From a virus (Duplodnaviria > Caudoviricetes), in IMG/VR virus record IMGVR_UViG_3300019378_000951, positions 64,001 to 128,000 of that record: 64,000 nucleotides of DNA. One strand, 5' to 3'. The translations under genes were made by a program, and so were the position numbers. Of this stretch, positions 38,539 through 40,298 are shown in pieces; within the stretch, counting starts at the first letter, position 1, and each line of letters opens with the position of its first letter. The notes beneath the pieces were generated by a model. The model was given only the letters and a program-made list of their open reading frames with translations, was not told the origin of the DNA and searched no databases.

Positions 38539-38611
38539 AATACTACCTCCACATTTAATTTTATTTTTACTTCACAAAAATAATATATATTTTAAAAATA
38601 TTATATTACGA

Positions 38612-40298
38612 TCAATCTATATAATTATCTATATCTATTTCAACTATTTTTAATGTTAAGTCATGGAATGCTTTAAGTGCTATATTAAGTATTCTAGACG
38701 CTATACGATTTGTAAGTATTCCAACATTTTCTATACCTAACATATAATATAACTCACCAAAACATTTACTGCAATATTTATCACCTTTACAATATAATGG
38801 GGATCTAAATTTAACAGTTTTACCGATATAGTCTTTTATATTTTCAGGAGTTAATAATACAAGTTTTTTACCTTCAATTATATATCTGTATTGGAAGAAT
38901 TTAGTTAAATCTTTAGTAAGAGTTAATTCAAGATAACCATTAGAACCACAATCGCTTCCAGGTTCATCTAACTGACATCCTTGAAATGCTGCCATAAGTT
39001 TTTTACCTTCATATCCCATAGTGTTAACCTATACATTTCTGTATAGCTCAGGCTATATCTTCACCATTTCTGGTGCTTCCCATTTCCACTCGTTAGAGTG
39101 TACTCTACTCCCTTATTAACGGTTTCGATAGTCGTTGAACCTTCCTATCTCTAGGCTTGGCTGCTGATTGTCCTATTAGGATTTTCCAGCAATTAAGAAA
39201 GTTTATAGAGAGCCGATAAATTTTGATCCCTCTCGAGTACCAATTGCACGGTTATAAGAAGCTTGAGTTATAAGGTCGGCATATGCCGCAAATTCTTCTT
39301 GAGGTATACCATCTACTAATGATTTAGTACTTATAGTTATTTTATCATCACTAAGATGACGAATTGCACCCATTATGTTAATCGTATTTCGCAAAAATAC
39401 GTTCGCTATACATTTCTGTATAGATCAGACTATATCACAATCTTTTCAGATTTTGCTTATTTCCATTTAAGGGATTTTCACCCACCGCATCAACTTCGGC
39501 CGTACTCCTATTGCTTATTTCAAAGCCAAAGGGATAGTCGTTGAACCTTCTTCTATTGAAGCTTGGCTGCTGATTGTCCTTATAGGATTTTCCAGCAATT
39601 AAAGCAATTTGCTTAATATATTTCTATACTAAGGCGCAGTGTTGTTTACGCATTACTGTAGAGTTTTTATAGTTATTTCCATAAGACCCCCTACATCCAC
39701 TATCGTATATTTGCTGATCTGGTATATATTGGACTGTCTCTTTAGCTAATCCAAGTAATTCTTTTTCCATTTTATCCGCAACTAATACATTTCCTGCTTC
39801 TAATTCTTTTGCATATTGCTTTGATAGTTCAGCTTTTCTTTTTTCAACATTTTCAGGTGGTATTAATAAATCTATTGTAAGAGCTGCATTCATAAACTTA
39901 GCTGTAGCAAATCCAAAATATTGAACTCTATCTATATATTCTGCCATATCTTCAGATGTTATTTTATCAGTAAGTAAGTATTTAGACATAAGATCATCTA
40001 AATCTCCTATGCCACCTTTACCCATTGTCATATTTTGATACCCTAGTTTCTTTAATAAATTTTCTCCTAAAGCATATTTATTAAATATGAGTCTTCCAAC
40101 TGTAGTTTCTTCTTTATTTTTATTATAAAACTCGTTAGGATTTAATGTAAATTCATCAAATGGCTGAAATTTAGGATTTTGATCTTTTCTATATGCAAAT
40201 AAATCTTTTAAAAGATTTAAATCTATATCTTTTTCTTTTAATGAAAGTAAATATTCTTTTTCTTTAGCCGTTATTTGTCTTGCAACTTCTTTAGCCAT
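38612..40298 (-). CDS. rpoC: Phage RNA polymerase beta'-like C-terminal subunit, spliced: complement(join(38612..39016,39227..39370,39648..40298)), about 399 aa
   Basis: TTVGRLIFN, SGCRGS, MR|GA, bridge helix TREG|GYEGKKL, DCGS, Zn site RSPLYC...CSKCFG, trigger-loop end LKAFH; second junction is non-canonical. Confidence 0.85.
39017..39226 (-). ncRNA. Group I intron B of RNAP beta' (about 210 nt, boundaries uncertain by 1 nt)
   Basis: Core nearly identical to the beta introns; S element reads AAGATATAGCC; ends AACACTATG. Confidence 0.82.
39371..39647 (-). ncRNA. Group I intron A of RNAP beta' (277 nt, no ORF)
   Basis: P1 GCGT/GCGC, P10 CACT/GGTG; core elements; ends AACATAATG; removal restores MRG. 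Confidence 0.9.

Follow-up and report, generated by a model that had tools for sequence, protein, structure and literature searches.

The second intron of a viral gene for an RNA polymerase subunit is probably a functional IA2-type group I intron that has been kept in nature and that uses a non-canonical 5' splice site, directly after an adenosine (A39227). Productive splicing would join the codon GGA (39229-39227) to the codon GGA (39016-39014), and the spliced product would restore the bridge-helix sequence TREGGYEGK of the C-terminal β' subunit of the virion RNA polymerase. The proposed cut lies one base upstream of a potential U·G pair, formed either by U39226 with G39214 or by U39226 with G39213 while A39227 is bulged. 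The ribozyme would thus cut one base 5' of the wobble U and would then ligate the upstream exon to G39016.

We refer to the whole stretch of DNA that was analysed, 64,000 nucleotides in length, as the window; it comprises bases 64001-128000 of a single-contig virus of 216,390 bp and 27% G+C. PHROG and tblastn matches place this virus with the AR9/PBS1-like jumbo phages, which have split multisubunit RNA polymerases. The gene under study (40298..38612, minus strand) is a homologue of AR9 g264, annotated in the AR9 record as the C-terminal part of the virion RNA polymerase β' subunit, and it matches PHROG 2962 (RNA polymerase subunit). AR9 g264 (Takahashivirus, Bacillus phages AR9/PBS1) is 60% identical to the window protein over exons 2 and 3, and the two have equal length and the same C-terminus. 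The AR9 gene is intronless, whereas its homologue in the window has three exons and two introns, with the following features.

39648..40298, minus strand: exon 1, ending ...ATG CGT (aligned to AR9 g264 and BpSp gp303)
39371..39647, minus strand: intron 1, canonical group I, 277 nt (Rfam, 84.8 bits)
39227..39370, minus strand: exon 2, 48 codons, GAIRHLSDD...NRAIGTREG (end-to-end alignment with AR9 g264)
39017..39226, minus strand: intron 2, group I, IA2 type, 210 nt, ORF-less (Rfam RF00028)
39215..39218, minus strand: P10 partner UAUC (direct sequence reading)
39207..39214, minus strand: internal guide 5'-G G CUCUCU-3' (P1 covariation in four same-site lineages)
39129..39133, minus strand: P7 5' strand GACUA, closing the R element (R core GGTTCAACGACTA matched exactly at 39129-39141)
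39051..39055, minus strand: P7 3' strand UAGCC (C39052 opposite A39132)
38612..39016, minus strand: exon 3, GYEGKKLMAAFQ...DNYID, plus the TGA stop at 38614-38612 (alignment to AR9 g264)

A profile of 37 homologues matches bacterial β' chains in the PDB (E = 4e-13); a PDB search with a single full-length homologue sequence gave no match, and the profile was required. The alignment sets ...ysravgTreGGyeeKkl... of the profile against the bacterial bridge helix ...dtalkTadaGYltrRL.... As TreGGyeeKkl aligns to TadaGYltrRL, intron 2 lies inside the β' bridge helix (TREG↓GYEGK, where the arrow marks the insertion site here and below), which is where a preliminary description of this DNA had put it. 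The second glycine of the motif is the first codon of exon 3 and is invariant in 37 of 37 homologues.

The bridge-helix codons are an insertion hot spot, with group I introns of relatives at at least five points within about eight codons (at -14 nt, -3, 0 and +4, plus one further upstream; L010 2095-2500, L009 1-220, L013 1660-2740; proteins P0041, P0053, P0056 and P0068-P0070). The same-site intron of L013 (1665-3683) contains two ORFs, a large one in the P1 loop and another immediately behind P4, both of which encode zinc-ribbon-rich repeat proteins with faint DUF4379 matches. Related introns occur in the catalytic β' motif NADFDG↓D of two IMG/VR contigs (L007, 9390-9720; L008, 1560-1900, minus strand), where the guide has the tail CUGUCUAUAAAC. 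A pattern scan of viral contigs for same-site introns returned only these NADFDG↓D-site introns, and further pattern scans of viral and metagenome contigs returned no additional same-site intron.

Structure of intron 2 and its 5' splice site

Intron 2 is the best-scoring group I match of the window, covering the full RF00028 model (positions 1-253) at 84.9 bits, where the gathering score is 50. It runs from U39226 to the terminal G at 39017; the letters are TCAAAATTTATCGGCTCTCTATAAAC at the start, GATATAGCC in the S element and GTTAACACTATG at the end. Exon 2 closes with ...ACT CGA GAG GGA (A at 39227), after which the intron opens with UCAAAAUUUAUCGGCUCUCUAUAAAC. At the 3' end the intron closes with ...CACUAUG, and exon 3 begins GGA TAT GAA GGT from 39016.

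Few features of group I introns are as conserved as the U·G wobble at the 5' splice site. In intron 2, the guide CUCUCU (39212-39207) pairs in P1 with the exon sequence AGAGGG (39233-39228), and the last exon base, A39227, stands opposite G39213. The next guide base, G39214, is able to pair with U39226, followed by C·C and the loop, and a U·G pair is possible only at this position, one base downstream of the junction. P10 consists of UAUC with GAUA of exon 3 (39015-39012; 4 bp), with G39016 opposite G39214. These letters bear out the original claim that the product TREG↓GY needs an exon 2 ending in GGA, with an A opposite the guide G. By every test applied except that of the U·G wobble, the sequence of intron 2 is that of a group I intron, with self-splicing itself predicted.

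A second departure lies in P7, where the S element of intron 2 is GAUAUAGCC. The A39132·C39052 mismatch adjoins the guanosine-binding G-C pair (G39133-C39051), which is present. Group I introns with an identical R core (GTTCAACGACTA) number 20 in the 216-kb genome, 11 of them within the window. A C at the 39052 position is found in 1 of these 20 family introns, in keeping with the reported TAGCC in place of TAGTC and P7 mismatch near the G-binding site; the S element is GATATAGTC, also written GAUAUAGUC, in all 19 of the others. The mismatch may be neutral or mildly deleterious, or it may represent an adjustment to a purine-purine or altered splice-site geometry. As both oddities arose in one lineage, their co-occurrence carries no statistical weight.

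Manual reading of the 5' junctions in the remaining ten introns of the window found U opposite a guide G in 10 of 10, as had been stated when these introns were described as canonical. A U at +1 that faces the G immediately 5' to the wobble G is common in the family, as in window introns C, E and F and in the same-site intron L019, and a terminal AUG (AAUG↓) is the 3' tail motif in most introns of the family. Intron 1 has U at -1, S = GATATAGTC, the 3' end AAUG and a P1 of AUGCGU with GCGC that includes the U·G pair.

Intron 1 is also variable among strains. It is missing from L012, L014, L015 and L024, in which the exons are contiguous. The empty alleles read ATG AGA↓GGN at this site (for example L012 1440-1450), against ATG CGT, intron, GGT in the window, the flanking codon having changed together with intron presence.

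The textbook rule for group I splicing is a cut 3' of the U in the U·G pair, followed by a contiguous P10; applied to intron 2, it puts the cut after U39226 and gives the product GGA UGA UAU. In ViennaRNA predictions, the second-best P1 fold has A39227 bulged and pairs U39226 with G39213 and C39225 with G39214, which looks like a normal P1 set for a cut after U39226. No more than 1.3 kcal/mol separates the alternative P1 folds. At its energy minimum, the P1 hairpin (39202-39240, minus strand; -7.3 kcal/mol) adopts a third register, GAGAG with CUCUC plus GAU with AUC, in which the wobble pair is absent and G39213 and G39214 are unpaired.

Such folds raise the alternative that splicing is dual-register or inefficient, which takes in the regulated low-efficiency intron of the preliminary description. 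Both cut sites would then be used, the cut after U39226 giving an in-frame UGA and a truncated subunit and the cut after A39227 the full-length protein, and the weak site together with the P7 mismatch would lower or tune the yield of the polymerase subunit. We consider this unlikely, for a reason that emerges from the sister allele described below. The shifted form does offer a true U·G and four contiguous Watson-Crick P10 pairs, the closeness of the P1 folds and the P7 mismatch beside the guanosine-binding pair would both fit, and few polymerase copies are needed per virion, which counts in the same direction. An elaborated version, to which we attach a similarly small chance, holds that the A at -1 and the A·C mismatch are co-adapted, with the cut 5' of the wobble U, or else that a P1/P10 switch deliberately partitions the product between full-length and UGA-truncated forms.

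Position of the junction in related alleles

Intronless homologues fix where exon 2 has to end. AR9 g264 and BpSp gp303 encode GTREGGYESKK without an intron, and exons 2 and 3 of the window align to them gap-free. Closer to the window, the 90%-identity protein cluster around its protein includes full-length, 399-aa intronless alleles. The alleles L014 and L024 (~95% DNA identity to the window) read CGT GAA GGG↓GGA TAT, and L015-L018 (~88% DNA identity) read CGT GAA GGT↓GGT TAC; the encoded protein of L014-L018 and L024 is TREGGYEGKK. Since the intronless alleles encode TREGGYEGK, exon 2 must end at A39227, and GGA (39227) joined to GGA (39016) is the only junction predicted to give TREGGYEGK under the standard code.

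Two other readings of these data were tried and rejected. That L024 might be a spliced cDNA is at odds with its 59 base differences, which make it a genuine intronless allele. If exon 2 ended instead with GGT (39239) and the intron with GUAUAG (39029), the boundary drawn by Rfam, the reading frame would be kept and the product would be AIG+VNTM+GYEGK. This junction was rejected because TREG, a conserved stretch, is encoded by the 5' flank, because the guide has no pairing to AUUGGU, and because the tail UUAACAnnAUG of intron 2 is common to intron 1 and other members of the family.

Introns at the same site in three other lineages (L005, L013 and L019/L022) all follow GGT↓, with the U·G pair. 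Exon and guide are AGAAGGU and G-CUUUCU in L005, AGACGGU and G-CCGUCU in L013, and AGAGGGU and G-CUCUCU in L019/L022; in the window they are AGAGGGA and GCUCUCU. The two strands covary, as A-U, G-C and C-G at -4 and as G·U or G-C at -3, and this covariation across four same-site lineages shows the P1 register. The guide of L019, AUCGGCUCUCU, is identical to that of the window, which makes G39213 homologous to the wobble G. Of the explanations first put forward, an unusual splice site is the one that these alleles favour: the intronless forms set GGN↓GGA, and the sister intron with the same guide has GGT↓.

The same sister allele bears on the shifted register. In canonical L019, the second G (the equivalent of 39214) is present, the intron starts with U, P10 is the same (GAUA with UAUC), and the first exon G is opposite a G, as in the window. 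Because the second G and P10 are already present in this canonical intron, pairing in the shifted register is no evidence for a moved splice site, and the shifted-register U-G and P10 are inherited from a canonical ancestor. This argues against dual-register splicing, since the second G and P10 were not made for the shift. It also divides what had been said of splicing one base later: the resulting GAG GGA TGA TAT was confirmed, whereas the continuous P10 cited in its favour, being found in L019 too, is uninformative.

Persistence of the A-type intron and the reading of exon 3

Both A39227 and C39052 are present in the independent metagenome assemblies L012, L020 and L021, and C39052 is also present in L023, which covers the 3' half only. 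The P7 position corresponding to 39052 is T in L019, L022 and L005. An assembly error at 39227 and 39052 had been suggested, with GGT and TAGTC as the expected true sequence; the independent assemblies show A and C instead. The rarity of the two features is all that speaks for a sequencing or assembly error, and we reject it, given that both bases recur in different samples and on diverged strain backgrounds.

The A-type intron exists as two haplotypes, which are distinguished by 6 of the 210 bases. Among these 6 are a double compensatory change in P8 (GCACCA/UGGUG to GCGCCA/UGGCG) and, in P3, a change from G·U to A-U. Compensatory pairs among the same-site introns are found in P3, P8 and P9; RNAalifold mispaired the guide with the S element when run on the four same-site introns, and only its counts for these three stems were used. 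From these substitutions we conclude that the predicted ribozyme stems of the A-type intron are maintained.

The A-type haplotypes occur on at least three exon-3 backgrounds, and the exons are far more diverged than the intron (window versus L012, dS 0.37 over the gene). Exon 2 is identical in L012 and L021 and exon 3 is different (dS 0.56), which indicates that the intron and its flank moved between backgrounds.

We observed that the exons are under strong purifying selection. Between the window and L012, dN/dS is 0.03 for exon 1, 0.02 for exon 2 and 0.14 for exon 3; exon 3 of L012 gives 0.10-0.14 against every other allele, regardless of intron type. Exon-3 dN/dS is 0.02 between the window and L021, both of which are A-type, and exon 3 of the window encodes a protein identical to that of intronless L024 (dN = 0, dS 0.23). 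Over all pairs, dN/dS for exons 2 and 3 ranges from 0.00 to 0.14. By these substitution patterns, exon 3 is clearly translated and constrained in the A-type phages, and the gene is not decaying.

Translation of exon 3 might in principle be separate from that of exon 2. The intron would then not be removed productively, and exon 3 would be read from the intron-terminal AUG (39019-39017), splitting the subunit in the bridge helix. That AUG shares the frame of exon 3, and gene-calling programs give an ORF beginning MGYEGKK.... However, the terminal AUG belongs to the family-wide tail, and the sole Shine-Dalgarno-like element is AGG, which lies partly within the P9 stem and is absent from L019. 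The compensatory changes, moreover, put the ribozyme under structural selection, and a break within the bridge helix is unlikely to be tolerated. We therefore judge a split subunit to be very unlikely.

The preliminary description had also listed UGA recoding. Splicing would then be canonical, after U39226 alone, and the UGA would be read as Gly under code 25, as Trp through code 4 or read-through, or be otherwise recoded. The U-G geometry of the shifted register is consistent with this, and so is the IMG gene call, which reads TGA as W. Several observations oppose it, beginning with the stop of the gene itself: the gene ends in GAT TGA, where L012, L014-L018 and L024 have GAT or GAC followed by TAA, and its C-terminus matches that of AR9. 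Under table 11, ORFs of at least 150 aa cover 173 of 216 kb, and 13 of 158 end in TGA, which answers the suggestion that TGA usage be checked genome-wide. Four TGA-bridged ORF pairs were found, none of them convincing: two are full of further TGAs, and two join short segments of about 100 and about 80 codons. A search of the 216-kb genome found no tRNA genes, suppressor tRNA genes included, and a Trp at the invariant bridge-helix glycine would probably be harmful. Recoding is rejected, with in our estimate very little chance of being correct.

In the IMG gene call for window positions 38606-39019 (minus strand), the TGA stop is read as Trp, such that P0089 ends ...DNYIDWS. As the remaining evidence says that TGA is a stop, genetic code 4 was probably assigned to the IMG record in error.

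Comparison with known group I introns and IStrons

Intron 2 shares most of its organization with canonical ORF-less IA2 phage group I introns, a class that comprises the other 19 introns of the genome as well as the T4 td/nrdB and Twort types. Like them, it has the R core, the P3-P9 architecture, the terminal G and the tail ...AACAnnAUG, and its guide follows the layout P10 partner, G, P1 partner. Unlike them, it has A in place of U at -1, and in its P7 an A·C mismatch replaces A-U.

A survey of IStrons describes the last base of the 5' exon as virtually always U, and exceptionally C, among thousands of group I introns (PMC4227781). The group B IStrons, whose IA2-class ribozymes come from Firmicutes and their phages, have a 5' exon that ends in G; their intron starts with the U that follows the AGGG target, and the U-G pair, displaced by one base from the splice site, lies at the edge of the P1 loop (PMC4227781). 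Splicing after G was confirmed by RT-PCR sequencing for BcISt1 of Bacillus cereus ATCC 10987 (Tourasse, Stabell and Kolsto 2014; PMC4227781).

Intron 2 resembles these elements in several respects. It is of the IA2 class, with low-GC Gram-positive bacteria and their phages as the common setting; the last base of its 5' exon is a purine that follows a G-rich target (AGGG↓ in the IStrons, GAGGGA↓ here); and it starts with a U that can pair, beside the P1 loop, with a guide G. The analogy is inexact, as the -1 base of intron 2 is an A mismatched with G, whereas theirs is G. Their junctions were verified experimentally, whereas ours is read from sequence comparison, and intron 2, unlike the IStrons, interrupts a protein-coding gene of a phage, where it occupies a homing-type site and has a canonical U-type sister allele. 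No IS200/IS605- or IS607-type transposase part was found at its 3' end (210 nt, ORF-less), so intron 2 is not an IStron and could at most work in the manner of an IStron ribozyme. A search of Clostridium phage c-st with RF00028 gave no match. Since the layout GAGGGA↓U is like that of the group B IStrons, a cut one base 5' of the wobble U is most likely. We infer that the ribozyme itself most likely cleaves after A39227, at a junction whose position rests on protein conservation.

If this reading is correct, an otherwise ordinary mobile phage intron keeps an A at -1 in an essential gene, where it persists and spreads among wild strains. Near-identical genes hold a natural allelic series at one site, consisting of empty, U-type (with the same guide) and A-type forms. 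The U-type sister and the empty alleles can serve as natural controls, which makes the choice of cut site by the ribozyme directly testable. Annotation pipelines and intron databases that demand a boundary U would mis-annotate the gene at 40298..38612. As read from these alleles, this conserved and mobile phage intron, with its A at -1, falls outside the exceptions named for the last exon base, which are C and the G of the group B IStrons (PMC4227781).
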